Source: Eledone cirrhosa (lineage: Eukaryota). From it: DNA of 64,000 bases. Below the pieces are notes generated by a model. It was not told where the DNA came from and did no database searches. It worked only from the letters and a program-made list of their open reading frames with translations. The translations under genes were made by a program, and so were the position numbers. This document shows positions 4,801-60,499 of the stretch, one piece after another (position 1 is the stretch's first letter; every line of letters begins with the position of its first letter). Where the stretch lies: NCBI GenBank assembly GCA_964016885.1, contig OZ024742.1, positions 316,820,001-316,884,000 of the forward strand, given 5' to 3'.

Positions 4801-5311
4801 CAACTTCCAGAAATCTCTGGCCTGGCAGTGCTACCGAGGAGCCTTGCCAGTTCGGGATAAACTCTACAGGCATGGAGGTGCCGTCAGCCGGGCATGTCCG
4901 AGATGCGCGCAGGGCGACGAAACCGTCCTGCACGCACTCGTCCAGTGTCCGAAAATTGCTGACTTGTGGGTTTATGTCGAACACCTGCTGTCGCGTTTAG
5001 GACGGATCCAGCTATCATCTGAGTCTATCGTGAGGATTGCCCCGCCCTCCTCCTTTAGCCGGGAAGGGCAGGCAGTTTTTATCTGTCTGGTGGCCATGGC
5101 GAAAGAGATAGTATGGTGGACACGTTTGAAAGGGCTGAAGACGAGCACTTACCTCTTCGGTGATGCTCTGATTGACTTTTTCAAATTTCATTTGAAAAGG
5201 AAAATCAGAGTAGAGAAGGAAGTGCTCTCTTCCCAGCATTTTGTTGAAAGATGGGTGAGAGAAGCAAGAATGGCCCGAGTGAATGGGCCGACTCTGAGTA
5301 TATATCTGTAA
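1892..5311 (+). CDS. LINE ORF2: AP endonuclease + reverse transcriptase + C-terminal CCHC (Tx1/L1 group)
   Basis: APE motifs SINARGL, ISETR, VYAP, GDWN, LDRVF, YTDH; RT motifs QSKAFDRVDH, RQGCPLS, YADD; C-terminal CPRC..ETVLHALVQC; 1139 aa. Confidence 0.97.
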   Translation: MTSLRIGSINARGLGSSWKQGHLLNDLRSLNIDVVAISETRISEARAFAPIFGGYDVYASPSRPGSGGGVAVLFRRGLDLAIRAIFLDPEGKLVVLDVTSGDGQAFRLVAVYAPTGAGRPDFFRRLETFLGTSRSLVLVGDWNGILDARWDCVGLADRGGGCKSLTNLLRRFELSDRYRLDFPNVPMWTWTNRIGSSRSYLDRVFCREIDRSSIGCPQFKIVSYTDHKFVICVLDLDRLHRRGPGYWKLNASLPARKAYRDRISELVKRALTGAIVNNKWWFALKRAIRIESIRFSKALAIEKNRAEGELVRKLDEALSKGIATDVLAAKLALDQFFNAKHEGCVVRARVRALRHEGTKAVQWARVAEARRGNKATIRSLVDHDGRMLLDPGQMCEAFQRHFAQLFGGSGGPGRGMDFSVYLDGLPRLSATEAKCCEKPITAAEVREAMTGCTRGKSPGLDGLPYELYVQMPDLFGGLLADVYCNWQQNGRIPSSVSRGAVALLRKDPNKGDNIDNFRPITLLNTEFKILAKVLAKRLALVVGGLVGEAQTCAIPDRSIHDNLHLMRYIVERVAREPGTGGSLINLDQSKAFDRVDHRYLAAVLRAAGFGPVFRGWIAAMHSDICSVVRVNGHLSEPFNIMRSVRQGCPLSSLLYVLTLEPLLHKLETLRGVPRELGCGRSVSAYADDVTVVVSNAKHIEAIGTTLREYEAVTGAMINQEKSVGLQLGTWRGRSMPSNSVVGRWTDGPVKLLGVWFGPDLQTDKNWDEVTSRVASLTQKWAERKLSLKGRAEVANAYIASVICYRLTVVPCPKPRLTALERLLFRFLWKGRAPMVRRSICCQHPLRGGLGMPWLMMRRHALRLRHLHLFLDGDQVWSPFARRVFPQLVSLTELQSWVKRRPRGSAWRLECLQALTALDQSGNVIGGNSTSAFYRGLVEGKSDDVLGETLGVDENQLANLFGRTFGPGPMDNFQKSLAWQCYRGALPVRDKLYRHGGAVSRACPRCAQGDETVLHALVQCPKIADLWVYVEHLLSRLGRIQLSSESIVRIAPPSSFSREGQAVFICLVAMAKEIVWWTRLKGLKTSTYLFGDALIDFFKFHLKRKIRVEKEVLSSQHFVERWVREARMARVNGPTLSIYL

Positions 5312-35902: not shown

Positions 35903-35954
<52 letters not shown>

Positions 35955-35969
35955 TTTTTTTTTTTTTTT

Positions 35970-38900: not shown

Positions 38901-39378
38901 TTGGAGTGGTCACCTTGCCAGGATGAAGGATTCTAGAGTACCAAAACAACTCTTTTATGGAGAGTTGGATAAAGGAAAACGACCGCCACATAAACCAAAA
39001 AAGAGGTATAAGGATTCCTTGAAAGCCTCTCTGAAAGACGCTAACATTTCTGCTGATACATGGGAGAATATTGCTGCTGATCGTAATAAATGGAGAAAGA
39101 CTGCATATGAGGGAAAAGTTGCCTTTGAGGCATCTCGAATCGCATACGAGAAAGTAAAGCGGGATGTGATGAAGGGCATTGCTGTTGCACTCCCAGACGG
39201 CGAGGGTCCTCCTATGGTGCTGACATGCAGCGTATGTGCGAGACTCTGCCTAAGCAAAGCTGGACTCGAAAGTCACACTCGTTCAGCGTATCGGTAGGGG
39301 TTCTCCTACATGGATATAAAGTAGTGGCCGTACTCGAAAACGAGTTCGGATCCACCATGTATGTATGTATGTAAGTAT
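35970..39378 (+). mobile_element. RTE-clade LINE, decayed, (TATG)n tail
   Basis: Single APE-RT ORF (WNVRTL, LSETK, VYAPT, GDFNARVG, WHLLDY, WTDHRLV; FVDLTKAFD, GVKQG, YADD, LRWSGHLARM). Short 3'UTR ends in CATGTATGTATG. Confidence 0.92.
35978..39297 (+). pseudogene. RTE ORF with a 1-bp frameshift near 37866 and in-frame TGA at 38644-38646
   Basis: Three consecutive ORF-track pieces join into one EN-RT protein ending in a C2H2-like motif CSVCARLCLSKAGLESH. Confidence 0.9.
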
Positions 39379-39978
39379 GTGGTGCTACTGGTAACATGTA
39401 TCCCAGTACAACCTATCCCATGGTCGGGTCCTTGGCGACTAAACTGGCAACCCCACCAAGGTTTCTTGGTGAGGAAGGTTACTTTTGACATCCTGCAGGA
39501 CTAAAAACAAAACCTGTCAAAGGGCAAAGGAGCTCTTAAGAGTCAATGGCCATCTAAAATCACCGGGAGAGATAGCCCCTTAGCCTTTGTCAAGGCAGAA
39601 TTCTAGGAGAAGGAAAACTCTGATATAACACCTGCAATCCTGATGGTATCCAATGATGTTGACTTGTTCTTCTTTTTGGTAAATATCATCTTGGTTACGC
39701 CAGTGGGACTGGCTTGGTGCAGAGTCTTTGCTCACTATAAAAGCATCACGGCACAGGCATTGCTTTATATCTGGAGATCTCTCTGCACTTGTCGTCACAT
39801 GGTACCATGGGCCCAGCACTATGTGTCAATAATTGTCACAAGTGTAGTGTTTGTACCAGAGTTTTCAAGTCGTTGGCTGGACTAAAATGTCACACTCGTT
39901 CAGCGCATCGGTAGGGGTTCTCCTACATGGATATAAAGTAGTGGCCGTACTCGAAAACGAGTTGGCAGCCACCATGTA
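39379..39978 (+). mobile_element. ~600-bp non-autonomous bipartite RTE derivative (SINE-like), copy 1
   Basis: Last ~100 nt match the adjacent RTE 3' end (GTCACACTCGTTCAGCG...CCACCATGTA). Carries the RTE-type 5' motif TAGCCTTTGTCAAGGC..CTAGGAGAAGGAAAACTCTGA. Second copy at 63121. Confidence 0.8.
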
Positions 39979-40911: not shown

Positions 40912-40954
<43 letters not shown>

Positions 40955-41108
40955 AATAAATGCTCTGAAATAGCGATATATATGTGAATATAGACATAGA
41001 ATATTCGAAAATATTCTGTATGTTTATAATAAACATTTTGAAGACCTAATCGCTATAGAATAGAATACGTCACGTATTACAATTAGATTCTCGACAAAAG
41101 CAAGGGAA

Positions 41109-41151
41109 GTAATCTACGCGTTTCATTCTTGTTAGAAATCTTCAGGACTAC
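41109..41151 (-). ncRNA. Minimal type I hammerhead ribozyme (also 41419-41461, 41729-41771, 42039-42081)
   Basis: Reverse complement of GTAGTC-CTGAAGA-T TTCT AACA AGAA T-GAAA-CGCG-TA-GATTAC. Confidence 0.85.
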
Positions 41152-42540
41152 ATATCCAGTGCTTTTATCGAGAATGACACAGCTAGAGACTTATAGAATA
41201 CTTAGCTGTGTACAGGAACTGGTTTGAAAGAGCGGTTGCCGGTCCGGCAGAAATTAGAAATTGGAATAAATGCTCTGAAATAGCGATATATATGTGAATA
41301 TAGACATAGAATATTCGAAAATATTCTGTATGTTTATAATAAACATTTTGAAGACCTAATCGCTATAGAATAGAATACGTCACGTATTACAATTAGATTC
41401 TCGACAAAAGCAAGGGAAGTAATCTACGCGTTTCATTCTTGTTAGAAATCTTCAGGACTACATATCCAGTGCTTTTATCGAGAATGACACAGCTAGAGAC
41501 TTATAGAATACTTAGCTGTGTACAGGAACTGGTTTGAAAGAGCGGTTGCCGGTCCGGCAGAAATTAGAAATTGGAATAAATGCTCTGAAATAGCGATATA
41601 TATGTGAATATAGACATAGAATATTCGAAAATATTCTGTATGTTTATAATAAACATTTTGAAGACCTAATCGCTATAGAATAGAATACGTCACGTATTAC
41701 AATTAGATTCTCGACAAAAGCAAGGGAAGTAATCTACGCGTTTCATTCTTGTTAGAAATCTTCAGGACTACATATCCAGTGCTTTTATCGAGAATGACAC
41801 AGCTAGAGACTTATAGAATACTTAGCTGTGTACAGGAACTGGTTTGAAAGAGCGGTTGCCGGTCCGGCAGAAATTAGAAATTGGAATAAATGCTCTGAAA
41901 TAGCGATATATATGTGAATATAGACATAGAATATTCGAAAATATTCTGTATGTTTATAATAAACATTTTAAAGACCTAATCGCTATAGAATAGAATACGT
42001 CACGTATTACAATTAGATTCTCGACAAAAGCAAGGGAAGTAATCTACGCGTTTCATTCTTGTTAGAAATCTTCAGGACTACATATCCAGTGCTTTTATCG
42101 AGAATGACACAGCTAGAGACTTATAGAATACTTAGCTGTGTACAGGAACTGGTTTGAAAGAGCGGTTGCCGGTCCGGCAGAAATTAGAAATTGGAATAAA
42201 TGCTCTGAAATAGCGATATATATGTGAATATAGACATAGAATATTCGAAAATATTCTGTATGTTTATAATAAACATTTTGAAGACCTAATCGCTATAGAA
42301 TAGAATACGTCACGTATTCTATTCTATAGCGATTAGGTCTTCAAAATGTTTATTATAAACATACAGAATATTTTCGAATATTCTATGTCTATATTCACAT
42401 ATATATCGCTATTTCAGAGCATTTATTCCAATTTCTAATTTCTGCCGGACCGGCAACCGCTCTTTCAAACCAGTTCCTGTACACAGCTAAGTATTCTATA
42501 AGTCTCTAGCTGTATCATTCTCGATAAAAGCACTGGATAT

Positions 42541-42583
42541 GTAGTCCTGAAGATTTCTAACAAGAATGAAACGCGTAGATTAC
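42541..42583 (+). ncRNA. Minimal type I hammerhead ribozyme (also 42851-42893, 43161-43203, 43470-43512, 43780-43822)
   Basis: Stem I GTAGTC/GATTAC; core CUGAAGA and GAAA; stem II TTCT/AGAA; palindromic stem III ACGCGT; GUA cleavage triplet (cut after 42577). Confidence 0.87.
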
Positions 42584-43987
42584 TTCCCTTGCTTTTGTCG
42601 AGAATCTAATTGTAATACGTCACGTATTCTATTCTATAGCGATTAGGTCTTCAAAATGTTTATTATAAACATACAGAATATTTTCGAATATTCTATGTCT
42701 ATATTCACATATATATCGCTATTTCAGAGCATTTATTCCAATTTCTAATTTCTGCCGGACCGGCAACCGCTCTTTCAAACCAGTTCCTGTACACAGCTAA
42801 GTATTCTATAAGTCTCTAGCTGTATCATTCTCGATAAAAGCACTGGATATGTAGTCCTGAAGATTTCTAACAAGAATGAAACGCGTAGATTACTTCCCTT
42901 GCTTTTGTCGAGAATCTAATTGTAATACGTGACGTATTCTATTCTATAGCGATTAGGTCTTCAAAATGTTTATTATAAACATACAGAATATTTTCGAATA
43001 TTCTATGTCTATATTCACATATATATCGCTATTTCAGAGCATTTATTCCAATTTCTAATTTCTGCCGGACCGGCAACCGCTCTTTCAAACCAGTTCCTGT
43101 ACACAGCTAAGTATTCTATAAGTCTCTAGCTGTGTCATTCTCGATAAAAGCACTGGATATGTAGTCCTGAAGATTTCTAACAAGAATGAAACGCGTAGAT
43201 TACTTCCCTTGCTTTTGTCGAGAATCTAATTGTAATACGTGACGTATTCTATTCTATAGCGATTAGGTCTTCAAAATGTTTATTATAAACATACAGAATA
43301 TTTTCGAATATTCTATGTCTATATTCACATATATATCGCTATTTCAGAGCATTTATTCCAATTTCTAATTTCTGCCGGCCGGCAACCGCTCTTTCAAACC
43401 AGTTCCTGTACACAGCTAAGTATTCTATAAGTCTCTAGCTGTGTCATTCTTGATAAAAGCACTGGATATGTAGTCCTGAAGATTTCTAACAAGAATGAAA
43501 CGCGTAGATTACTTCCCTTGCTTTTGTCGAGAATCTAATTGTAATACGTGACGTATTCTATTCTATAGCGATTAGGTCTTCAAAATGTTTATTATAAACA
43601 TACAGAATATTTTCGAATATTCTATGTCTATATTCACATATATATCGCTATTTCAGAGCATTTATTCCAATTTCTAATTTCTGCCGGACCGGCAACCGCT
43701 CTTTCAAACCAGTTCCTGTACACAGCTAAGTATTCTATAAGTCTCTAGCTGTGTCATTCTCGATAAAAGCACTGGATATGTAGTCCTGAAGATTTCTAAC
43801 AAGAATGAAACGCGTAGATTACTTCCCTTGCTTTTGTCGAGAATCTAATTGTAATACGTGACGTATTCTATTCTATAGCGATTAGGTCTTCAAAATGTTT
43901 ATTATAAACATACAGAATATTTTCGAATATTCTATGTCTATATTCACATATATATATTTATATATTAAGCGTATATATACATTCAAA

Positions 43988-44760
43988 TTAAGCGCCGAAA
44001 CATCTATGATCTGTAGTAAACAGCTGATGAAGGTTTATCCTCTAACCCTTCGTTTTCAGTAACCACACAGCCTAACTCTTCGCCTGTAATTTTGTATTTA
44101 CTGCTGTCACCTCTCAGTCGATTTGTGTTTCAGATCGACTCCCTCCTTTTCCCTCCCTCTTTTTCCCTATATGTCTCTCTCTTTCTCTCACTCTCTCTCT
44201 CACTCTCACTCTATCCATTTGACTGTTTTTGGCCTGGTCCCAGTGTCGTAAAACCTTTTTGGATTAACTACCTTTCCCTTCTCCTCCCTCACCCTCTGTC
44301 CCTCTTGCTCACCCCTCTCCCTTCCTGTCCTCCGGTCTCTCCGTCTTTCACTCTTTCTACCCTCACACTACTGAGATCGCCACGGAAAAACCTTGCTCAG
44401 CTGTTATCACCGCCAACGGGCTTATACCCATCGGCGTACTATAACTTATTCCACTTTCTCTTCGGTTACCTTACATACATGTGCCATTGTCCTGTATCCC
44501 AACTCATATTGGTATGTTTACTTCGTTTTTTCCTCTTTTTCTTTTTTTCTTCTTCTTCCTCTCTCTTCATTATCACTTCTTTCCCTCAATGCCTTTTGAT
44601 GGATAAAAGGCCATGGGCGCGCTACAGATCGATGTTCTGTTTTATTTAAGCGCTGAAACATCTATGATCTGTAGTAAACAGCTGATGAAGGGATACTTTT
44701 CTTCTCCTGTTTACGCCCCGTTTACCTTCTAACCCTTCGTTTTCAGTAACCACACAGCCT
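43988..44760 (+). repeat. Element remnant with imperfect terminal direct repeats (43988-44073 and 44646-44760)
   Basis: TTAAGCG..GAAACATCTATGATCTGTAGTAAACAGCTGATGAAGG...TCTAACCCTTCGTTTTCAGTAACCACACAGCCT occurs twice, 658 bp apart. Confidence 0.6.
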
Positions 44761-45846
44761 CTCTGTATGTGTGCGTTTAATATACGTATGAAATTACAGT
44801 ACAAATATGGGTTAATGTATGTGACTGTATGTTCATTTGTCTCTCTTTCAGGCCCTTGTATGGATAGAATCCGATTTCATGAATGTTCATAAAAATTGGT
44901 TGAGAAAAAGTCGGAATGGGATAAATATGCCTATGAAAGATTGACTATATATGGTAAGCATCGTTTCGAGGACGTAACTTAGTGGAATGAAAATCGAATT
45001 GAAACATATCAGCTACAGTTAACTGAATTTGAAAACTCAACATAAACAGAGAAGTCATGCTTTTCTGATGGATTCTGCATTTATCTAAAATTGTTTCAAT
45101 AATTTTCTTACGCATATGAGGTGTGAATTGAAGACAGGGTTTTTGCATGGAAATTTTATCGGCAATATTGTTAACGCAGCACGTTAGGTGAGAAGCAACA
45201 GGATCCATATTTAATGATGTAGAGGCCTTCATATATGATAGCACAACTAACGATAGAGATATGTTTTAATTGGCAGTCCAAGAAAAGGGATCCGTATAAT
45301 ACACAACCTAATCAGTAAACAGATGTTACATAGTGTCCTCGATTTTACCACATCCTACATTTCCAAAATTACTTATCAATAATGAGACTTTTAGAGGGTG
45401 AACTAGAAATGTCTAGCGCTTCCCTCACAGTGTACACATACAACACAAACAAGCTACGTGGACTACATTGTACAGAACAGCAAAGAATAAGCGAAAAAAA
45501 GTCCTAATTACCAAATACAATGATTAAGAATAATAAATATTCTGCCACGAACTCACGGGCAAATTCACCTGATTACTGCAAAGATTATTATATTTTAAAT
45601 TTTACAATCAGAACGCTAGCATTCTACGATGACTTTTTATATGACTTACTTATTTACAGTAAACACTAATGATTAGCTACATGCAAAACACCGCTCAAAG
45701 GTGATAAACCGTTGATAATAAGCGGTAATTAATGTTTGATATTAAAATAAAATTGGAATAAACAGTATATAAGTTTTAACATTAAATAATTTATAAACTG
45801 TAAAGCATAGAGTATGTTTCTTGTTTAATATTATTTAAAAGATTTA

Positions 45847-46070
45847 GGGTGACGGATTGGCAGTATCGGTAGAGCGTCACACAACATAATTTATGGCATA
45901 GGGTTACGCCTCTTTAATATCTGAGTTCAAATCCTGCCGAGGCTAGCTTTGGCTTTCATCCTTTCGGGGTTGATGAAATAAAGTACCAGAAATGCACTGG
46001 ACACGATTTAATCGACTTTCCCATCCCCCAAAGTTGTTGGTCTTGTGCCTAAATCTGAAGTCAATATTAT
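45847..46070 (+). mobile_element. tRNA-derived SINE
   Basis: A-box-like TGGCAGTATCGG, B box GAGTTCAAATCC, core CTTTCATCCTTTCGGGGTTGATGAAATAAAGTACCAG. Confidence 0.72.
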
Positions 46071-46279
46071 TATAAACAGTATTATATCAAATATACTGTT
46101 TCCTCTGTATATTTTTGCAGGTATCGCCTATGTTTTAATACACACAGACTCACATATATGAACACATCATACACACTCACAAACAGACAAACACACACAC
46201 ATATATATATAAAGAGTGAGATTTATGTATGTACATAAGTATATTTATACACCCCCCCCCCATATATATATATACATAC

Positions 46280-46326
<47 letters not shown>

Positions 46327-47605
46327 CACTTATACATACACACATATGCACACACTCACGCACGTATGTAAACACAAACACACACACACACACACTCAAA
46401 CACACATATATTTAATAAAGTTCAGGGATTTGTATATACCATTTATTATTTCCATATAATTAATAATTTAATGATATTTACCAATTAATTATTTATGATG
46501 TTTTATCAGGAAAAGACTAATAAGATTAACCAACCAGACTGGCTGAGCAGTCTTGTCTCCCAATTAAATTGGCTATCAGATCCGAGTGGATACATGCTAT
46601 CCTAATTATATTATTAATAAACTCTCAAAACTGGTCATTATAAGCAATATAAAATCCTACAAGGATTATCTCCCTCACAATATTACGTATATGAAAACTA
46701 ATTATGTACAAACCTTTATGTCAAAGTGTCAGTTTGTCTCTAAGGTTGGGGTGTTGCTTCGTATTTTAGAACACATACCAAATTGTAAATCACGAGTTTG
46801 ATTGATGACCGACTCTTTTGAAGAAGCTTTCAAGAAATAGATACTCGAATAAATGTTTTTTTAATTTCTTTCAGGGCGAGAACTAATAGTAAATATTCAA
46901 CAATAATATACAATAATGTCTATGCAATAAATAGAAAATAATACATTGCTTCCATATAACATTTTAATAAAACCTATCTACAACGTATGCTCATAGACAT
47001 AAGTCGACCAGCAAAACTTACCGATAGGTTGTGAAATATGTTTTGAAATCATTTAATCATTTACCTGACCATGCGCAATCAAATGCTGTTGGTATGTGTG
47101 CAATAGTAGTAAGGTATTAAGAATGTGATTTCGGTGGGATATCATCTGTAATGATGCTATGCTGTCTCTTCCAGGGAAGTGAAAATATTTTCCGTGTTGA
47201 AGTTCAAGTTTGTGTTATATGGTTTTCATTAACCATTGCTGTGCTTCCGTTTTTCAATATCCCTAAAATTTCTCTTTTATATCATTTTGTTCATGTTTAT
47301 TTGGAAATAGGGGTTGTGTCCATGGCTTTTGCAGTCCACCAGAGACTGATGTGATTGATGTCCTTTGACACTTTCACATTACTTACTCCAGAAAAGATAT
47401 TGGAGGTTCCTAGAGGATATCAGTTTTGGAGAGGAAGGATTGCAGGCAGTATTTTATGCAGAGTATGGTGGTATCAAGTATTCATGACGTGAGGAAGAGA
47501 AATGGTGAATTTGGTGGTCATGAGTTCAGTGACGGGGTTGTAGAAGAGGAACTATGAGAAAACATCACATCTGTGAGTTAGAGATTGAAGAGCAACATTT
47601 TGAAT

Positions 47606-47641
<36 letters not shown>

Positions 47642-48206
47642 GTTTAGCGAGGTTTTTTTATATGAAATCGTGTGTCGAAACAAATATTGTTATACTTGGG
47701 GAGGGTCATATTTGTGTAATATTGCCAGAATTAATAACAGAACACACTCACTGTTTGGTTGGTTTTCGCTTCTCGCTGTCTTTTATATCTGCGATCTAAC
47801 TTAATCGGTCCTCAATGTTGACATTGACTGACCGACGGTCAAAAATAATACAGATACAATATAGACACAAAGACATATATATATTTTACATAATTTACAT
47901 AAATCTTTCGTTGCACATCTGCAACATCGTCAGTGGTGTTATATTTTTTCCTCCTGTTGTGTTGTATGTCTACGCCATTTTTTATTCAGTCTGTCTATAT
48001 ATTTATTTATTTATTTGCTTGTTTGTTTATTTTATTTTGTCTTCTTTGCGCATGCGTTTGCGTGTGTGTATAGTGTCATGTTTGCTGTGTGACTAGTGTG
48101 TATAGTGTTGTGTCTGCTGGGTGACTAGTGTGTGTTTATGTGCTTGTTGTTATTGTGCTTGTGTATGTATTTATTTATCTTATTTTATTTTATTTTATTT
48201 ACTTAT

Positions 48207-48527
48207 TTATACTTCTCTTAGGTCAGTGTTGTTTGCTTGGGTGTTGTTGTTGTTCCACTCATTCTTTCTGTTTAGCTTTGGTCTTCTAATTTCTATTTCA
48301 CTGGCCTCTCTGATTTGTCTATCTGCTGGGTCATTCCTATGTTTAGATATTATTCTAATTTCTATGTTGTCTATGTTACCGTCATGTTGTTGCCTAGCAT
48401 GTTCGTATAGTACTGACCCGTTTTTTCGTCCTTTTAGTTCCCCCCAGTGTTGGTCTATCCTTTCACCTATGCTGCGAGCTGTTTCGCCTATGTATGTTGT
48501 TGTCATGTTTCTGCAAGTACCCTCTGT
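48207..48527 (-). pseudogene. GIY-YIG endonuclease fragment of Penelope-like element (left arm)
   Basis: TEGTCRNMTTTYIGETARSIGERIDQH...REASEIEIRRPKLNRKNEW. Confidence 0.8.
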
Positions 48528-48864
48528 CTATAGCATAAGATGTACAGAGGGTACTTGCAGAAACATGACAACAACATACATAGGCGAAACAGCTCGTAGC
48601 ATAGGTGAAAGGATAGACCAACACTGGGGGGAACTAAAAGGACGAAAAAACGGGTCAGTACTATACGAACATGCTAGGCAACAACATGACGGTAACATAG
48701 ACAACATAGAAATTAGAATAATATCTAAACATAGGAATGACCCAGCAGATAGGCAAATCAGAGAGGCCAGTGAAATAGAAATTAGAAGACCAAAGCTAAA
48801 CAGAAAGAATGAGTGGAACAACAACAACACCCAAACAAACAACACTGACCTAAGAGAAGTATAA
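48526..48864 (+). pseudogene. GIY-YIG endonuclease fragment of Penelope-like element (right arm)
   Basis: VYSIRC...C....YIGETAR...RIDQH...EH...E..EI....PKLN, the PLE-type GIY-YIG pattern. Confidence 0.85.
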
Positions 48865-49130
48865 ATAAGTAAATAAAATAAAATAAAATAAGATAAATAA
48901 ATACATACACAAGCACAATAACAACAAGCACATAAACACACACTAGTCACCCAGCAGACACAACACTATACACACTAGTCACACAGCAAACATGACACTA
49001 TACACACACGCAAACGCATGCGCAAAGAAGACAAAATAAAATAAACAAACAAGCAAATAAATAAATAAATATATAGACAGACTGAATAAAAAATGGCGTA
49101 GACATACAACACAACAGGAGGAAAAAATAT

Positions 49131-49175
49131 AACACCACTGACGATGTTGCAGATGTGCAACGAAAGATTTATGTA
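49131..49175 (+). ncRNA. Hammerhead-like motif in PLE 3' region (mirror copy ~47896-47940, minus strand)
   Basis: CTGACGA-T-GTTGCA GATG TGCAAC-GAAA-GATT-TA. Core and stem II are good but stem I is only ~2 bp, so it may be degenerate. Confidence 0.5.
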
Positions 49176-49379
49176 AATTATGTAAACTATATATATGTGT
49201 TTGTGTCTATATTGTATCTGTATTATTTTTGACCGTCGGTCAGTCAATGTCAACATTGAGGACCGAGTAAGTTAGATCGCAGATATAAAAGACAGCGAGA
49301 AGCGAAAACCAACCAAACAGTGAGTGTGTTCTGTTATTAATTCTGGCAATATTACACAAATATGACCCTCCCCAAGTAT

Positions 49380-49455
<76 letters not shown>

Positions 49456-49516
49456 TATTGAGTTAGGAACTCAAAATAGTCTCTTACAACAATATATCTT
49501 TTATATTCTATTATAA

Positions 49517-49551
<35 letters not shown>

Positions 49552-51837
49552 TTTTTTTTCATAAACCGCAACTTTCCCATTAAGGCATATCACCTAGATA
49601 TTATAAAAGAGTGACGAATGATAGAGTTCATCCTATGAAGAAAAAATAATTTGGTTCGGTTATATTGTTAACTTGGTAAGCTAAATGAAATGTATATCAT
49701 AGTTTTAGATGTATATCATAGTTTTAGATATTGCAGAAACACATAAATGGCTCTATAGTTTGTTTTTTTTATTCGCATATTGCAAATACAGTCTATTTTA
49801 TTTGTAATTACTTTGTTTGCGTTCCTATTTTTTATAATATAAAAAAGACTTTACACGTTCTTTTACTTTTATAGTATCGGGTAAAATGAAAAGTAGGATT
49901 CAGCAATTTCTCATTAAAATTGATTTTTTAAATTAAATGAAAACCAATTCTTGATTTGCATTTTAAGTGTAGTTTAAATAGATATCGATGGTACTCTGTG
50001 GTGTGAAATCAGGTAGATCATTATGATAAAAGTGAAATTGTTTCAAACGTTGTAGTCTCATTATACTTTGGGTAGAATTATATCGCTTACGTTGCTTACA
50101 ATACAGCAAGCCAAAGAAAACTAATCATCAAATACAAACTCATTTTGTAGAATGATTGATCATTAGAGATAATCTGTAAAACTTGACTAACAGTAAATAC
50201 ATTAGCGCAAATGACTGTGTAGTCACGGTACTGAACATAAACATTTCAACAATCACAGTCCTAAACACAATTACCTCTACAAGGATCGTCTTTAAAGTAC
50301 CATGAACCTACTAATAGGCTGTACATGTTTGACAAATGTAAGCTACAATGATTATTCCTGTTTTACTATCAATAGTATACCTAATGGTTATTTTACTACT
50401 TTAGTTGAAACAGTATAAACAAATACATAGTTGTTATGCAGGAATATACAAATCTGTTTCGCTCACGTTTAGTATATTTATTAAAATTATTGATGTTGTT
50501 ATTCTTGAGAATTATATTAGTAACTAGAATATAGCGGGTTTCGACGAGGAATTGAAATCATAGCACGCCTACATTTTATTCTAAATGTAATTCTAATATA
50601 CCACACACGTTACTGTTTTGCCACACAATAAAGAAGTAATTTTTAAGTCCATCTCACATTCACCTTCAGTCAAAAGATAGATTGAAATATTGTAGCATAA
50701 ATGAAATACCGAAATACTAAACCGATGCAAAAATATGAGAGGAAATCATAAATTGCAATATCGAATCTCAATATTTAATTTGAAATAAATAAAAATGTTA
50801 AACAAAGAATTCAGACAAAAAATACACGAAAGTAAAAGAGAAATTGAAAAGAGAAAATATTTCTAAAAAAATAGCAATTTAACGAAATGATGATCAAGTT
50901 ATTATGTTTTTTTTAAGGTTTCAAGAAGTATCAGATAAAACCCAGGAAATACAGTTTAATTGCAGCTTGCCGTCAATTTGTGGCATGAATGAAGGTTTGA
51001 TAACAGACGCATGCGCAGTCAGTTCTGCCAACACAAAAACATTTCTCAATAACAGACTAATGCAATTGTATTTCCTATTGAGAAAGTATTGATTTATTTT
51101 TTCTGCTCCTCTTCCTCATCCTCACACCTTCTCTCAGCCTGTTTTTCCCTGATTGTTTCAATTCGCCGAAGCCGCTTGTTGCAACAATACTGTATCACAG
51201 AAGAAAGCTGAAATTGAAACTGAGAAATATTTGTACAATTTTAAAGAAAACAGTACATCTTTAGATTTATTCAACTTAAGATACATTTAACTTGTATTTC
51301 TCCGTTCTATTCTAAAATGTTCTACGTTTTCTTCGTCATTTACTTTTCACCCATTTCCCTACAATGGCTGATTTTATCGTCTCTAATAGCCAAAGATTAA
51401 GATTTAGACATAACTTGATAATGCACGTCAGGAATCGCAGGGGGTTTCTATGTCATGATGCTTTATATCATGTATGCTGGCGTGACTGTCTTTAACCGTA
51501 TTTCTATGCTTACATGGGGCCTGAGGCTTAATATATTTCCAGTGACATCGATGTCAAAATATCTTAAGTAGGAAGTGATATCCGACAAAGATGAATATGA
51601 ATGTTTGTACGAACATGAATACATAAAATCATATACATTATTTTGAGATCAACAGTCTCCCATTGATTCATGTCTACGCTTGTTTATATGTGATACATAA
51701 TTTATTGGCATACTTGTTAGAAATAATATAATCGTTAATTTACTCACACACACACACACACACACACATAAACACACATATACATATACAGATAGACACA
51801 TAATATCTATGTCACTCTCAATATATAATATATATAT

Positions 51838-51841
51838 ATGT

Positions 51842-51915
<74 letters not shown>

Positions 51916-51932
51916 GTGTGTGTGTGTGTGTG
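51838..51932. repeat. (TG)n microsatellite
   Basis: Direct observation. Confidence 0.95.
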
Positions 51933-51934
51933 TT

Positions 51935-52650
51935 GCCCCATAGGTAGTAGTCCGATACATTCAGGTTTGCAGAGCTATGAGGTCATATATTTGGAGTGAC
52001 GTGATCGCGAATATTATAACGCATCTATTCTTGGGTTGACTTTGTCTTATAAAAAGGCACAGAGGATTGTTGATAGAATCTCTTTCCAATGCCTCACAAC
52101 TGTCGCTAGAACCTTATGGCCAGCAGTATTGACACTTACGCCTCAAGGAAAGAACTATTAGAACTGCCTGAATCTTTGTGTGCAAGACTATTATATCTTT
52201 ACGGACTCTGCATAAACATATATCATTCCCTCCGTTGACATGTTGGTTCTGATCAAAGAAAGTCCAAGGCATTCATGCGCTTTGCCCAGCTTAAAGGCTT
52301 ATTCTTTGATTTGAGTTATGTATTGACCTCTCCGCATCACGAATGAATTGTATCGACAGCCTTCGCGCACAATTCTTCTGATCGTGTGCCTTCTGATCGT
52401 GTGCACTAATTGGTTTTCTAATGCATTATCTATGGTTCTCCGCACCTTTCGTACACATTTTGGTGTTCTGGTGGTATTAAGACCCTTGGGAGGCGTTTTA
52501 CATTTGGCTACAGCTGTAGAATCGGCGTTGATAGTTTCAAACACTTTTCTTTGCAAACTTTGTCAATCATCTGTGCAATTTCAGGAAGCGAGCACTCTAC
52601 GTCACATTGCTCTGCCTTTAAGGCAACGGATATAGCGTGTCGTCTGATAT
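51935..52650 (-). pseudogene. Decayed Tc1/mariner-superfamily transposase
   Basis: Minus-strand translation gives RTPKCVRKVRR..TIRRIVRE...FVMRRGQ and QQSSVPFYKTKSTQE*M...TPNI*PHSSANLNVSDYYLWG, a degenerate QQDSAP..H / WPPxSPDLNPLDY signature. Confidence 0.7.
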
Positions 52651-52794
52651 CTGCCATCATCCTCATTTAGCTAAAACGAAAGGATAATCAGAACAAGTTA
52701 GAAAAACGTTATTGCTATTAAAAGACGTGTCCTGAAAGAACTGGGAAACAATGTACAAACATACATACATGCACACATATATACACATACATAT

Positions 52795-52839
<45 letters not shown>

Positions 52840-53524
52840 GGGGTGTTATCTGTCTGCGTTTGTCCCTTAAAATACCTACGTTAATCCCTTTGTTTTTGCA
52901 GGTAAAATCTTTAATGTGTAGAGTACGTGTAGTAATAGCGTTCGACAAGAAACTCAATAGACATATTTTCCTAACTCAGATGGTTGTTCCGCGCTTGATT
53001 ACAGCAAAGCGACCGTTATCTTTCATTGACATTTTACATGTAAGTTATAATATAACGATAGAGTGAGAAAAGAAGACGGTAAAGGAAAACATTCATTAGC
53101 ATTTATTGGTGTATTGACAGTTGGTTACTTAACAGATAAGTGGTAGCATAAAATATATGGTTTATAATACAGGTGCAATGTGTCGGAACACGGAAGAGCC
53201 GAAATACCACCATCATCGGCCCCATCTTTCTCTCCCTCCTCATCTCTCTGTATAGTGAGTAAATGGGGACACACGTGCTGGCCGCCCCACAGCCCCGCTG
53301 ACAGAATGGAGAAGGCGTTTCCCCGGAGGATGGTAAAGGAGATGTGCGCTATGTGCCATGTGCTGTTAATTTAATAAGCAGTCCTAAATTCCATTCTTTG
53401 AATGTTACTCTGTGATTCACCTCACGTGGTATGATTTATTTTTAATATTATTTTCATATGGCGGAGAAGCGAAAGATTTAAACATGTTTCCTTTTTTCCC
53501 TGAATGGAACCTTTATTGCCACAG

Positions 53525-53777
53525 TGTATGTGTGATAGCTCACACCTATGCAGGTTTAGCTGGCCTCCTTCAAGGTATATCTCGTTGGAGGTGTCTTGGG
53601 TAATTTAATGATAGGGAACCCAGTCCTATCATCTCATTTCTACAGCTGCGTAAACTGGAGAAACGTGAAATAAAGTGTCTTGCTCAAGGAAACAACACAT
53701 CACCCGGTCCGAGAATTGAACTCACAACCTTTTGGTTGCAAGCCCTATGCTCTAACCACTAAGCCATGCGCCTTCAC
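53525..53777 (-). mobile_element. tRNA-derived CORE-type SINE with 11-bp target-site duplication TATTGCCACAG
   Basis: Minus strand: A box TGGCTTAGTGG, B box GAGTTCAATTC, CORE-like TCCTTGAGCAAGACACTTTATTTCAC. TSD at 53514-53524 and 53778-53788. Confidence 0.8.
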
Positions 53778-54244
53778 TATTGCCACAGAGCCATCCACGT
53801 AAATCGAATACCCTGTCAACGATTCAGTCAACTATAATATAATACTTCCTATATAATTATATGGCCTTGGGCCTATATGAGAAATGTCAGTTCATATTCA
53901 ACTTAATTTTGTATTCTGTTGTGATTATGGTCAGTAATTTCACCTTTCTTGATAAAACAGTTTCTTCCTTCCAGATAACGAAGGCATTTATCTGTGATGC
54001 TGTGTAGAATAACATTTTATTTGCTTGAATTGTATAGAGAATACATTTACAGAACGAGTAAAAAGCAGCGTGTCCTTTACAACGTATCATTTAAGAAGAT
54101 GAGAAATGTAAATAACCTAAAGCACCTCTCAGCACTCAATCTACACAGAGTTGACTCAGCTAGATTGGCGCTTCGTTCTTGCTCTATGGAATGTTCACAG
54201 AATGTACGAATTTGAAGTAAATTATTCTCAATATATACAAAGTG

Positions 54245-54430
54245 TTTCTATTTTGGGCACAAGGCCAGCAATTATCCCTGTGCATTAGTGGAACTTTATT
54301 TTATTGATCCCGTAAGGACGAAAGGCAAAGTTAACCCCGGCGAGATTTGAACTCGGAACGTAAAGGGCTATAACTTTATGCTGCTAAGCATGGTGTCTGA
54401 CACTCTACCGATACTGCCAATCCACCGCCC
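54245..54430 (-). mobile_element. tRNA-derived SINE (same family as 40660 and 45847)
   Basis: Reverse complement shows GGGCGGTGGATTGGCAGTATCGG...GAGTTCAAATC...GCCTTTCGTCCTTACGGG. Confidence 0.72.
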
Positions 54431-55072
54431 TTAAAGTTAATAATGATAATGGTAAATGTAGCATGTTCTACTTTGCTAATGCTGTATGAGACAACGGGGA
54501 AATCTCTGTGATTGGAGGTGCTGCTAGGAATAGCAGTAAAATCTCCGAAATGAAATTCTAGTGTGTTGTAAATGAAGAAACAAATTGAATAATTGAGCTT
54601 TGTGTATGCACTGCTCTATGAGCGGACAGGCCTGTTATGTTTGGTTTATAGAAATCGTTGAATATCAAAACCAAGTACAGGTATCTTTATGATCGACAAT
54701 ATCCCTTTAAGGCTGATCGCAGACAAATGGCTGAAGCCAGTGAATAAATGTATATTGTGCTTCGATCAACATACTTATTCTGTCTTTTAAAAAATCGGCT
54801 CTATTTACTAAGTGAAATAAGTCGTAACTTCAATTACATTTTTCCAATAAGACAGAATTATAAGATTTAGCTGACTATTTGATAATTAATTGCTTTAGCT
54901 TTATACTATTATGTTCTTCTAATAGCCACAAAGACTCTTGCTATCAATCTCACCAAAGAATCTTAAACGAATTTTCTTAGTATTTTATGATTTTCTCTCA
55001 ACACAAATATAGATTATTAAATATACAAAGGAGAAATTTGTCTTCGTTGTGTAAACTTAATTCATACTCGAC

Positions 55073-55091
55073 TCTCTCTCTCTCTGTACCC

Positions 55092-55150
<59 letters not shown>
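55073..55150. repeat. (CT)n microsatellite
   Basis: Direct observation. Confidence 0.95.
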
Positions 55151-55152
<2 letters not shown>

Positions 55153-55677
55153 GCTCTCCCTTACGTGCTCTCTTTCGCTCACCCGTTTTTTCATTGTCTT
55201 TCATTGTTCATATTGCATCTGACTTTCCTGTCATTTGTCTGTCTATGTCAATTTACCTCTATACATGTATCTTCTTTCTATTTCAGTTATAATTACTCAC
55301 CCACACATTTATGTCTTTTCTTCTAGCATTATTCAATTGTCCTTTCCCATTTTGAATATCTGATTGTCTCATTCCCGTTCTCTCCTATCTCTATGTCGCT
55401 TCTTATTACCAGTATGCGTATTCAGTTTCTTTTCTTACAATTATTGTTCTTTTTATTTTCCCTTTATACATTTCGTCGTTCTCTCATTCTTCCAAGCAAT
55501 TCCAGACTTTTCTCTTGCGTTTATCTGCCACTAATATTAATTATTATTTCTGCGAATGCAATTCATTCCTCGTATCTCTATCATTTTCCTAAACACTGCT
55601 TTACCTCTCTCAAAATATTTCTTTTACATCTACCTACAGGAATACACATTTTTCTTAACTTACTTCCATATATAAAT

Positions 55678-55816
55678 GCATACATACATACTCACATACA
55701 TGCATACATACATACTCACATACATACATACATACATACATACATACATACATACATACATACATACATACATACATACATACATACATACATACATACA
55801 TACATACATACATACA
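55678..55816. repeat. (CATA)n microsatellite
   Basis: Direct observation. Confidence 0.95.
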
Positions 55817-56100
55817 TGATGTTGATGGCTGCCCCCTCATTATCAAGTATGGTCATTGCACGATATACTATTATTAATAATTAAGTTAAAGATGTACATC
55901 CATATATGTATACTGAAATACTAGTATGTATATGAATACACACACGTATACATATGTAGGTGTACCAAGTTTTTTCACTGGTCACTTTACTGTGAGTGGC
56001 CAGCTAGTCTGTATGTAAACACACAGACAAACCGGTTTTTAGAGTCATACTGGTTTTTGAGGAAACACCTCTCCTCTATTCTCCAGAAAGCCAGACAAGG

Positions 56101-56145
56101 AATATTGAACTAGTTTCGTTGTTGTTACAACTCATCAGCAATATT
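56101..56145 (-). ncRNA. Minimal type I hammerhead ribozyme (also 56568-56612, 57035-57079, 57502-57546, 57969-58013)
   Basis: Reverse complement of AATATTG-CTGATGA-GTTG TAACAA CAAC-GAAA-CTAG-TT-CAATATT. Confidence 0.9.
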
Positions 56146-58698
56146 TACCTATCTTCCGGCCTCTCTAGAGAATCGTAAAAGCACATATCGTTATATGCTT
56201 TTTCTATGAAAATTAGTAGTGGGCAGACTAATTTGCATAGAGTGTGAGTAAGTACCGGTTCAACAGAGACGATAAAAACAAATAACGAAACGAAATTAAA
56301 TTTCGTTTCGTTTGTAACTCACTTTTGTATGACTGACGCTTAAACAATTAAGTTAAAGATGTACATCCATATATGTATACTGAAATACTAGTATGTATAT
56401 GAATACACACACGTATACATATGTAGGTGTACCAAGTTTTTTCACTGGTCACTTTACTGTGAGTGGCCAGCTAGTCTGTATGTAAACACACAGACAAACC
56501 GGTTTTTAGAGTCATACTGGTTTTTGAGGAAACACCTCTCCTCTATTCTCCAGAAAGCCAGACAAGGAATATTGAACTAGTTTCGTTGTTGTTACAACTC
56601 ATCAGCAATATTTACCTATCTTCCGGCCTCTCTAGAGAATCGTAAAAGCACATATCGTTATATGCTTTTTCTATGAAAATTAGTAGTGGGCAGACTAATT
56701 TGCATAGAGTGTGAGTAAGTACCGGTTCAACAGAGACGATAAAAACAAATAACGAAACGAAATTAAATTTCGTTTCGTTTGTAACTCACTTTTGTATGAC
56801 TGACGCTTAAACAATTAAGTTAAAGATGTACATCCATATATGTATACTGAAATACTAGTATGTATATGAATACACACACGTATACATATGTAGGTGTACC
56901 AAGTTTTTTCACTGGTCACTTTACTGTGAGTGGCCAGCTAGTCTGTATGTAAACACACAGACAAACCGGTTTTTAGAGTCATACTGGTTTTTGAGGAAAC
57001 ACCTCTCCTCTATTCTCCAGAAAGCCAGACAAGGAATATTGAACTAGTTTCGTTGTTGTTACAACTCATCAGCAATATTTACCTATCTTCCGGCCTCTCT
57101 AGAGAATCGTAAAAGCACATATCGTTATATGCTTTTTCTATGAAAATTAGTAGTGGGCAGACTAATTTGCATAGAGTGTGAGTAAGTACCGGTTCAACAG
57201 AGACGATAAAAACAAATAACGAAACGAAATTAAATTTCGTTTCGTTTGTAACTCACTTTTGTATGACTGACGCTTAAACAATTAAGTTAAAGATGTACAT
57301 CCATATATGTATACTGAAATACTAGTATGTATATGAATACACACACGTATACATATGTAGGTGTACCAAGTTTTTTCACTGGTCACTTTACTGTGAGTGG
57401 CCAGCTAGTCTGTATGTAAACACACAGACAAACCGGTTTTTAGAGTCATACTGGTTTTTGAGGAAACACCTCTCCTCTATTCTCCAGAAAGCCAGACAAG
57501 GAATATTGAACTAGTTTCGTTGTTGTTACAACTCATCAGCAATATTTACCTATCTTCCGGCCTCTCTAGAGAATCGTAAAAGCACATATCGTTATATGCT
57601 TTTTCTATGAAAATTAGTAGTGGGCAGACGAATTTGCATAGAGTGTGAGTAAGTACCGGTTCAACAGAGACGATAAAAACAAATAACGAAACGAAATTAA
57701 ATTTCGTTTCGTTTGTAACTCACTTTTGTATGACTGACGCTTAAACAATTAAGTTAAAGATGTACATCCATATATGTATACTGAAATACTAGTATGTATA
57801 TGAATACACACACGTATACATATGTAGGTGTACCAAGTTTTTTCACTGGTCACTTTACTGTGAGTGGCCGGCTAGTCTGTATGTAAACACACAGACAAAC
57901 CGGTTTTTAGAGTCATACTGGTTTTTGAGGAAACACCTCTCCTCTATTCTCCAGAAAGCCAGACAAGGAATATTGAACTAGTTTCGTTGTTGTTACAACT
58001 CATCAGCAATATTTACCTATCTTCCGGCCTCTCTAGAGAATCGTAAAAGCACATATCGTTATATGCTTTTTCTATGAAAATTAGTAGTGGGCAGACGAAT
58101 TTGCATAGAGTGTGAGTAAGTACCGGTTCAACAGAGACGATAAAAACAAATAACGAAACGAAATTAAATTTCGTTTCGTTTGTAACTCACTTTTGTATGA
58201 CTGACGCTTAAACAATTAAGTTAAAGATGTACATCCATATATGTATACTGAAATACTAGTATGTATATGAATACACACACGTATACATATGTAGGTGTAC
58301 CAAGTTTTTTCACTGGTCACTTTACTGTGAGTGGCCGGCTAGTCTGTATGTAAACACACAGACAAACCGGTTTTTAGAGTCATACTGGTTTTTGACCAGT
58401 GAAAAAACTTGGTACACCTACATATGTATACGTGTGTGTATTCATATACATACTAGTATTTCAGTATACATATATGGATGTACATCTTTAACTTAATTGT
58501 TTAAGCGTCAGTCATACAAAAGTGAGTTACAAACGAAACGAAATTTAATTTCGTTTCGTTATTTGTTTTTATCGTCTCTGTTGAACCGGTACTTACTCAC
58601 ACTCTATGCAAATTAGTCTGCCCACTACTAATTTTCATAGAAAAAGCATATAACGATATGTGCTTTTACGATTCTCTAGAGAGGCCGGAAGATAGGTA

Positions 58699-58743
58699 AA
58701 TATTGCTGATGAGTTGTAACAACAACGAAACTAGTTCAATATT
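58699..58743 (+). ncRNA. Minimal type I hammerhead ribozyme (also 59166-59210, 59633-59677, 60100-60144)
   Basis: Stem I AATATTG/CAATATT; CUGAUGA; stem II GTTG/CAAC; GAAA; palindromic stem III ACTAGT; GUU triplet (cut after 58736). Confidence 0.92.
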
Positions 58744-60499
58744 CCTTGTCTGGCTTTCTGGAGAATAGAGGAGAGGTGTTTCCTCAAAAACCAGTATGAC
58801 TCTAAAAACCGGTTTGTCTGTGTGTTTACATACAGACTAGCTGGCCACTCACAGTAAAGTGACCAGTGAAAAAACTTGGTACACCTACATATGTATACGT
58901 GTGTGTATTCATATACATACTAGTATTTCAGTATACATATATGGATGTACATCTTTAACTTAATTGTTTAAGCGTCAGTCATACAAAAGTGAGTTACAAA
59001 CGAAACGAAATTTAATTTCGTTTCGTTATTTGTTTTTATCGTCTCTGTTGAACCGGTACTTACTCACACTCTATGCAAATTAGTCTGCCCACTACTAATT
59101 TTCATAGAAAAAGCATATAACGATATGTGCTTTTACGATTCTCTAGAGAGGCCGGAAGATAGGTAAATATTGCTGATGAGTTGTAACAACAACGAAACTA
59201 GTTCAATATTCCTTGTCTGGCTTTCTGGAGAATAGAGGAGAGGTGTTTCCTCAAAAACCAGTATGACTCTAAAAACCGGTTTGTCTGTGTGTTTACATAC
59301 AGACTAGCTGGCCACTCACAGTAAAGTGACCAGTGAAAAAACTTGGTACACCTACATATGTATACGTGTGTGTATTCATATACATACTAGTATTTCAGTA
59401 TACATATATGGATGTACATCTTTAACTTAATTGTTTAAGCGTCAGTCATACAAAAGTGAGTTACAAACGAAACGAAATTTAATTTCGTTTCGTTATTTGT
59501 TTTTATCGTCTCTGTTGAACCGGTACTTACTCACACTCTATGCAAATTAGTCTGCCCACTACTAATTTTCATAGAAAAAGCATATAACGATATGTGCTTT
59601 TACGATTCTCTAGAGAGGCCGGAAGATAGGTAAATATTGCTGATGAGTTGTAACAACAACGAAACTAGTTCAATATTCCTTGTCTGGCTTTCTGGAGAAT
59701 AGAGGAGAGGTGTTTCCTCAAAAACCAGTATGACTCTAAAAACCGGTTTGTCTGTGTGTTTACATACAGACTAGCTGGCCACTCACAGTAAAGTGACCAG
59801 TGAAAAAACTTGGTACACCTACATATGTATACGTGTGTGTATTCATATACATACTAGTATTTCAGTATACATATATGGATGTACATCTTTAACTTAATTG
59901 TTTAAGCGTCAGTCATACAAAAGTGAGTTACAAACGAAACGAAATTTAATTTCGTTTCGTTATTTGTTTTTATCGTCTCTGTTGAACCGGTACTTACTCA
60001 CACTCTATGCAAATTAGTCTGCCCACTACTAATTTTCATAGAAAAAGCATATAACGATATGTGCTTTTACGATTCTCTAGAGAGGCCGGAAGATAGGTAA
60101 ATATTGCTGATGAGTTGTAACAACAACGAAACTAGTTCAATATTCCTTGTCTGGCTTTCTGGAGAATAGAGGAGAGGTGTTTCCTCAAAAACCAGTATGA
60201 CTCTAAAAACCGGTTTGTCTGTGTGTTTACATACAGACTAGCTGGCCACTCACAGTAAAGTGACCAGTGAAAAAACTTGGTACACCTACATATGTATACG
60301 TGTGTGTATTCATATACATACTAGTATTTCAGTATACATATATGGATGTACATCTTTAACTTAATTGTTTAAGCGTCAGTCATACAAAAGTGAGTTACAA
60401 ACGAAACGAAATTTAATTTCGTTTCGTTATTTGTTTCTATTATTAATAATTATTGATTAATTCTATCGTGCAATGCCTGTGCGTGAAGATTTTTTTTAA

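Follow-up and report, generated by a model that had tools for sequence, protein, structure and literature searches.

A 64,000-nucleotide (nt) stretch of the Eledone cirrhosa genome (assembly GCA_964016885.1, contig OZ024742.1, positions 316,820,001 to 316,884,000; here called the window) carries three large palindromes. Two are arrays of retrozymes lacking long terminal repeats (non-LTR retrozymes), built from 310-bp and 467-bp units with hammerhead ribozyme motifs, and the third is a truncated Penelope-like element (PLE). We conclude that all three are young Penelope-type insertions, likely made by double priming on one RNA. The basis for this reading is a set of features observed in the sequence: outward polarity, pairing of a short with a long outer end, largely independent apex phases and arm lengths, one haplotype in both arms, (TA)n targets, and seamless passage through the predicted ribozyme cut site.

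Comparing the window with itself by BLAST returned three large inverted repeats, at 40955–43955, approximately 47640–49387 and 55879–60436. The first consists of 310-bp units, with 4.4 copies in the left arm (40955–42318, minus strand) and 5.3 in the right arm (42304–43955, plus strand) at 99.5% identity. The third consists of 467-bp units, with 5.4 copies on the left (55879–58395, minus) and 4.4 on the right (58393–60436, plus) at about 99.5% identity. Both periods were confirmed with Tandem Repeats Finder (TRF). The middle repeat is the 3' end of a PLE (left arm 47640–48527, minus; right arm 48526–49387, plus), and its right arm holds the GIY-YIG C-terminus (VYSIRC...YIGET, stop at 48864), the 3' untranslated region with the pseudo-LTR (pLTR), and the start of the next open reading frame (ORF). 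A motif scan found the hammerhead cores on the plus strand in all right arms and on the minus strand in all left arms, so that the sense strand reads outward; the GIY-YIG frame of the PLE does likewise. The insertions sit next to an (AT)18 microsatellite on the left of the 310 array (40915–40951, detected by TRF), between (AT)n tracts on both sides of the PLE, (AT)38 on the right, and in AT-rich DNA with an 11-nt target-site duplication for the 467 array (55868–55878 and 60437–60447, both plus). The original prediction, made from the sequence of the window, had described three inverted repeats with outward sense strands, AT-rich or (AT)n targets, and a hammerhead core 140–300 nt from the outer ends. 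All of these are borne out, with 169–329 nt measured from the outer end to the start of the outermost core.

The arms are not mirror images. Their lengths are unequal (left versus right, 1364 and 1644 nt in the 310 array, about 890 and 860 nt in the PLE, 2517 and 2044 nt in the 467 array), and their outer ends differ and are fixed. In the 310 array the left arm has a long-type end at unit phase 123 (family mode 128) and the right arm a short-type end at phase 93–102 that merges into TA. The left arm of the PLE has the long end, with a tail of about 45 nt, and the right arm the short end. In the 467 array the left arm has the short-type end, at phase 105, and the right arm the long-type end, at phase 175 (family mode 179).

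In searches of the 3.0-Gb assembly holding the window, the 310 unit matched at least 298 times, the 467 unit at least 263 times and the PLE end 41 times. From the matches listed (150 for each retrozyme unit), we took 10 kb around each distinct other place (37, 35 and 33 loci, respectively), included in the PLE sample 20 of the 40 matches to a probe from the reverse transcriptase (RT) region, and added the window loci to the counts. The sample is skewed towards near-identical copies with at least one full unit. Two adjoining arms in opposite orientation, lying back to back, are present at 26 of 36 loci of the 467 family, 32 of 54 of the PLE, and 32 of 38 of the 310 family, a share inflated by a skew of the listed 310 matches to the minus strand and closer to three quarters after correction by hand. 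The back-to-back palindrome is the usual insertion form of all three families, and arms in the retrozyme arrays reach up to 19 units. Among the loci scored as single-armed, four carry tiny second arms of 11–47 nt (L072, L106, L107 and L124) and one is broken by an assembly gap (L046). At two loci, L054 and L110, the second arm is the size of a tail and stops at the short site.

Polarity is nearly invariant. Ninety-one apices point outward and one inward, the latter being a 27-nt internal inversion at L125. Opposite-strand pairs that were present by chance in the flanks are outward in 9 of 9 cases, as are all 16 pairs lying no more than 8 kb apart among 144 protein matches (counted by eye). The suggestion that outward palindromes are a regular insertion form is thereby upheld in the genome sample.

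In each family, the outer ends fall into two groups. They lie at unit phase 90–102 (short) or 123–135 (long) in the 310 family, at 105–113 (short) or 174–179 (long) in the 467 family, and, in the PLE, around nt 46 or nt 89/104 as counted in the frame of the following ORF. Every classifiable palindrome pairs one short with one long end: 31/31, 23/23 and 26/26 in the 310, 467 and PLE families, or 80/80, with no long-long or short-short combination; 11 of 91 could not be classified. In an independent run (X1), contigs of the 467 unit stop at the same two sites (58970 in 4 contigs and 59039 in 12), followed by (AT)n. The difference between the long and the short end is the ‘tail’ of PLEs. In the 467 family it measures about 74 nt, of which about 30 nt form a perfect hairpin; looping out this hairpin would leave about 44 nt, near the spacing in the other two families. 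The PLE ends sit within the start of the ORF, as in a lizard PLE that, in the accessible part of its description, nicks and extends both strands from two RNA sites (PMC11167929).

Palindrome anatomy was read from the assembled sequence, and the apices are known from the assembly alone, which raises the question whether they are fold-back reads or mis-assemblies. An artefact of this kind would mirror the flank and give identical arms. Here the flanks are unique, target duplications accompany the insertions, the arms differ in length, in end site and in single variants, and the independent run contains the two types of end as well. We consider an artefact hardly credible.

A second route to a palindrome is the one favored in the original prediction, fold-back second-strand synthesis: the 3' end of a target-primed complementary DNA (cDNA) snaps back on itself, is extended to a hairpin, and integrates. 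Two of the three apices in the window have this appearance. The 310 apex (42304–42318), with an 8-nt offset, lies on a natural 15-nt quasi-palindrome present in every unit and is reused at the independent locus L036, and the PLE apex has a loop of 16 unpaired nt (48528–48543, plus) beside a 2-nt microhomology at 48526–48527. At the 467 apex, a 3-nt microhomology (58393–58395) joins arms with a phase offset of 76 nt. Self-priming has also been inferred from junction palindromes in PLEs (PMC3846280, in the part available). Near-symmetric apices such as these two are, however, a minority genome-wide. The 5' stops of the two arms lie within 20 nt of each other at 5 of 32 apices in the 310 family, 8 of 26 in the 467 family and 2 of 33 in the PLE (4.2, 2.3 and 0.33 expected); the excess in the 467 family fits a fold-back origin, as do short 5' hairpins at L109, L128 and L131. 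In the other 76 of the 91 apices the offset exceeds 20 nt; the stops scatter across the entire unit, and in the PLE the offset reaches 2 kb. The outer end of each arm is at a fixed site of its own, complementary in type to that of its partner in 80 of 80 cases, and either arm can be the longer one (the short-end arm in 34 palindromes, the long-end arm in 38). Fold-back would give a symmetric apex and a second arm no longer than the first, since a hairpin copy starts at the fold and cannot outrun its template. Differences of whole units between the arms are common even at near-symmetric loci, as at L047, with arms of 5968 and 1599 nt. A general fold-back mechanism is contradicted by these data and, as an account of the three palindromes, unlikely; in a minority of events, fold-back may still start the junction.

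The apex junctions mostly contain 0–4 nt of microhomology or inserts of 1–40 nt, some of them templated (L034, L135). Short tandem copies make up two of the inserts, a 10-mer repeated four times at L135:6169-6208 and a repeated 13-mer at L034:5581-5603, which look like telomerase-style repeat addition or polymerase-theta templated inserts. We rejected, as a rule, a lockstep model in which the two cDNAs are of equal length: only 8 of 80 arm pairs agree within 110 nt, no more than after shuffling. In both arrays of the window, one arm has additional variants common to the two units nearest the apex (42304–42930 and 57630–58395). This suggests a one-unit duplication adjacent to the apex; without it, the arms would be nearly equal in length.

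At all retrozyme loci with two full arms (22/22 and 18/18 in the two families, 40/40 together), variants that are uniform over the array are common to both arms. Shuffling of arms between loci gave means of 11.0 and 6.0 shared, with maxima of 18 and 12 in 10,000 trials. Haplotypes in the 467 family are private, found at no other sampled locus, in 16 of 36 loci, among them the window; in the PLE, the closest sequence is the arm's own partner for 20 of 24 arms. The arrays pass 500 times over the predicted ribozyme cut site; 2 indels fall within 10 nt of this site and, of 138 5' ends, 1 coincides with it. A linear monomer template ending at the ribozyme cut was rejected on the latter count. The haplotype and cut-site data fit a template in the form of a sealed circle, derived from a single unit and copied repeatedly. 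Both arms come from the same donor, and we infer that they come from the same molecule. Variants with a period of two or three units (L043, L044, L076, L077 and L098) suggest some multimeric templates or later duplication.

Two separate RNAs, or a linear multimeric transcript with template jumps, could take the place of the single circle in double priming. A common haplotype would then need the same donor locus and nothing more, and PLE copies do occur in tandems of 4.1-kb units. At L045, L071 and L098 (3/3 clean cases), a non-uniform variant common to both arms sits one unit further from the outer end in the short-site arm than in the long-site arm, whereas L073 is inconsistent with this; the shift, seen by eye, would fit starts on different units, and the two start sites may indeed lie on different units. 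Separate or linear templates do not readily explain private haplotypes that are uniform over whole arrays, which imply a one-unit bottleneck, or the seamless joins at the predicted cut site. L054 and L110, where the second arm is tail-sized and terminates at the short site, likewise suggest two primers on one molecule. We therefore hold this variant to be improbable.

The same counts bear on the idea that two independent insertions at one site, or later rearrangement of direct arrays by breakage-fusion or gene conversion, produced the palindromes. Elements do cluster in TA-rich sites and abut each other (L034, L036, L064 and L078), and later unit duplications are present in some arrays. Such origins predict random polarity, random ends and mixed haplotypes. 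The observed ratios are 91:1, 80:0 and 40:0, and where it can be read, a single target duplication surrounds the whole palindrome. We consider these origins very improbable.

By our own threshold, both flanks are TA-rich in 48 of the 80 palindromes, one flank in 24, and neither in 8. At four loci with complex flanks (the 467 array of the window, L039, L082 and L087), a duplication of 7–11 nt brackets the whole palindrome, as expected from staggered nicks made in one event.

On the basis of these observations, double priming most likely proceeds as follows. Array transcripts would cleave themselves and circularise. The RT-endonuclease of a PLE, probably as a dimer, would bind the RNA and make staggered nicks in both strands of a (TA)n target. 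The two target 3' ends would each prime a cDNA on one circular or tandem RNA, one starting from the short site and the other from the long site. Each RT would then make a variable number of rounds of the template and displace the cDNA made by its counterpart, until host end-joining links the two cDNA 3' ends through 0–4 nt of microhomology and fills in the sense strands. A primer that fails, or stops early, would leave a single arm or a tail-sized second arm. At some near-symmetric apices, a cDNA end probably snaps back, or both ends anneal at a palindromic site, before joining. Two elements of the original prediction are retained in this scheme: one PLE-type process behind all three palindromes, supported by the same target, polarity and two-end tail signature, and a circular or multimeric template, supported by the haplotype and cut-site data. 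In a wider form, Penelope-type retrotransposition would be intrinsically double-primed, with an enzyme dimer, two fixed sites, one for each target strand, and one RNA circle copied by rolling-circle synthesis in both directions away from the target, and head-to-head palindromes of several kb would be the default product for PLEs and animal retrozymes; we see the chances of this extension as evenly balanced.

Several points weigh against double priming on one RNA. Near-symmetric apices are in excess in the 467 family (8/26 versus 2.3 expected, p 0.0013) and weakly so in the PLE (2/33, p 0.04), and PLE arm lengths are weakly correlated (rho 0.36, p 0.04). Some single-arm PLE copies end in short fold-back hairpins at the 5' end (L109, L128, L131); therefore snap-back does occur. 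Two of the near-symmetric 467 apices sit on the unit's own hairpin, and snap-back is likely a minor way of starting the junction. The end classes behind the 80/80 pairing were drawn post hoc from the data, although the groups are well separated. A common haplotype shows the same donor and not strictly the same molecule, and conversion from arm to arm could contribute. The circular RNA step and the apices are both read from assembled DNA sequence, in which the signs of a circular template are indirect. In the accessible text on the lizard PLE, there is no strand difference in start site in vitro, and hammerhead cleavage is dispensable (PMC11167929). Finally, among the matches listed, no BLAST match (E ≤ 1e-3) connects the 310 or 467 unit with the PLE end or with a second, PLE-like hammerhead family (17 loci matching RF00163).

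Predicted hammerheads mark the two arrays as retrozymes. In the 310 unit the motif (first right-arm copy 42517–42604, plus; core at 42547; predicted cut after 42577) recurs every 310 nt in both arms and has a U-U at the base of helix II. For the copy at 43137–43224, the predicted fold is that of a type I hammerhead whose helix I is extended (z -6.6). In the 467 unit the motif (58688–58759, plus; core at 58706; predicted cut after 58736) recurs every 467 nt in both arms, and the next copy is likewise predicted to fold as type I, with a weaker z of -1.7. Nine copies of the 467 unit match Rfam HH9 (RF02275), and their score of 37.7 bits (E 6e-6) falls short of the gathering threshold of 52. No Rfam hammerhead family matched the 310 unit or the PLE at E ≤ 1; a motif scan found the CUGANGA...GAAA core in both. 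In the PLE pLTR, the minimal core (49138–49165, plus; mirror copy from 47933 on the minus strand) has an extra base before the helix and folds as a 6-bp helix II only, as expected because the hammerheads of PLEs are of the minimal form (PMC4209133, in the part available). Rfam microRNA matches at the PLE apex were rejected as by-products of the palindrome. Both arrays thus consist of short non-coding tandem units, each with a predicted canonical type I hammerhead (sub-threshold in Rfam for the 467 unit, no match for the 310 unit). The dispersed young copies, at least 298 and at least 263 matches, and the duplications of 7–11 nt at the four complex-flank loci indicate mobility.

Further hammerhead families are present among the genome matches. 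One, at L156–L172 (centered near position 5000), carries a canonical-scoring hammerhead (RF00163, over the cut-off), lies in (TA)n, and often forms short outward palindromes. The 467 unit is also present in runs of 17 studies under many organism codes (runs X1–X20), for which contamination, diet and wide spread are all possible explanations; in runs X5 and X6 it is nearly identical, tandem or circular, at a depth of 5–15.

The PLE belongs to a family that, judging from its sequence, is young and probably active. The original prediction had proposed looking for an intact element with RT and GIY-YIG, and intact copies of the window's family are present: an unbroken frame of about 1210 amino acids (aa) from Met was found at 7 of 53 fetched PLE loci, and the matches of a genome-wide protein search include numerous further open frames, 1216–1217 codons long, that have an identical RT stretch. 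Read by eye, the frame contains an Asn-rich region, RT motifs including YVDD, a CX4CX2C linker, and a GIY-YIG domain with VVYSIRC...YIGET. Pfam RVT_1 matched at E 1.7e-4, below the cut-off, and Pfam gave no match for the whole frame or for the GIY-YIG part. Atlas matches at 0.97 led to clusters with RVT_1 and GIY-YIG, and a PDB sequence search gave two weak RT matches only. The unit is 4122 nt long. It has the organization of an endonuclease-positive (EN+) PLE: a single ORF with RT and C-terminal GIY-YIG, a pLTR with a minimal hammerhead, partial tandems, an inverted 5'-truncated copy, and a tail on one end. The CX4CX2C motif before GIY-YIG is compatible with the CX2-5CxxC given for Neptune/Nematis by Craig et al., 2021 (10.1101/2021.04.23.441226), a clade to which the family may belong and for which phylogenetic placement is the second criterion.

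The claim that the retrozymes are Penelope-driven stands with respect to their insertion anatomy, which is PLE-like, and falters with respect to this family, with whose pLTR and 3' sequence neither the 310 nor the 467 unit shares similarity. The protein search of the genome for an autonomous partner returned only the PLE family studied here. Beside copies of this PLE, at L118:6693-8933 and L119:949-2532, lie long ORFs of another PLE-like family (747 aa, with a C-terminal Cys/His motif), a candidate partner of the retrozymes.

Other repeats surround the palindromes. A 658-nt direct repeat with a CTGATGA core (43961–44770) abuts the right end of the 310 array and has relatives at L053, L070 and L077; it may be a retrozyme or pLTR of greater age, used as the target. 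Positions 1–35953 hold about six head-to-tail copies of a 6.06-kb long interspersed nuclear element (LINE) at 99.4% identity, each ending in (ATT)n. Its frames encode 701 aa and 1204 aa (apurinic/apyrimidinic endonuclease and RT), and a broken second LINE follows directly, at about 35954–39380.

The middle element is ordinary in form: its palindrome is the architecture already published for PLEs. In the accessible text, the insertion units of EN+ PLEs likewise have a head-to-head inverted, 5'-truncated copy, a tail of 30–40 bp on one end, a pLTR that includes the ORF start, target duplications of 8–10 bp, microsatellite targets, partial tandems, and Asn-rich ORF inserts (PMC3846280; 10.1101/2021.04.23.441226). 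In those descriptions the tail is termed ‘optional’, and the inversion is either attributed to self-priming or given no defined origin; in the loci studied here, the pairing of ends is strict (80/80) and the apex mostly asymmetric. Unlike in those units, the same form is carried here by non-coding ribozyme arrays, with arms of many units. The origin of tandem and inverted PLE insertions is stated to be unresolved in the text available from two of the papers (10.1101/2021.04.23.441226; PMC11167929).

The retrozymes in turn resemble the animal non-LTR retrozymes described in the accessible parts of PMC7229834 and Li et al., 2026 (10.64898/2026.07.22.740005), which have short AT-rich tandem units with a canonical type I hammerhead and no ORF, occur as dimers to multimers, and co-occur with PLEs. 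In having a U-U at the base of helix II, the 310 unit agrees with the description of the axolotl HHR_Amex2, and the 467-nt unit lies slightly above the range of 150–450 bp given in PMC7229834. The published retrozymes are direct tandem repeats, whereas those described here are palindromic; in the text available, the word ‘inverted’ appears nowhere in PMC7229834 and once, in a reference title, in 10.64898/2026.07.22.740005, and ‘tail’ does not appear in the latter. The published link between retrozymes and PLEs is co-occurrence and similarity to the pLTR. Here the link is insertion anatomy, in units without similarity to the PLEs checked. The open-access literature, searched without supplements, yielded no report of palindromic retrozyme arrays, of double priming by PLEs, or of strict end pairing. 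The original prediction, likewise, knew of no description of multi-kb palindromic retrozyme arrays as a regular insertion form.

Near-identical young tandem arrays act as a ruler: for each event, the two priming sites and the two stop sites can be read off from the unit phase. If the wider form of double priming is correct, the tail and the inverted pLTR, long unexplained, would be accounted for in one step, and the insertion anatomy would show that retrozyme circles are cargo of PLEs. The process would also steadily supply the genome with perfect palindromes of several kb, which may give rise to hairpin RNA and unstable DNA. A related scheme is the twin priming of LINE-1, in which the two target strands each prime cDNA on one RNA and a microhomology join creates an inversion. 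In twin priming, the place at which the second primer anneals is internal and varies, and each cDNA covers a part of the RNA that the other does not. The insertions described here differ in that both sites are fixed, at a distance of 30–70 nt, and the same sequence is copied into both cDNAs, which yields long palindromes.

The closest biochemical parallel is the lizard Poseidon PLE (PAc) studied in vitro by Frangieh et al., 2024 (PMC11167929). According to the part of that work available, this enzyme, a predicted dimer, nicks and extends both strands of AT-rich DNA, and its RT starts at two internal RNA sites that delimit the tail. This activity supplies the chemistry for double priming, and the strict rule of one short and one long end makes the mechanism testable in that existing system. 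The accessible text draws no link to inverted copies; the loci analyzed here imply that both sites are used together, one for each target strand.

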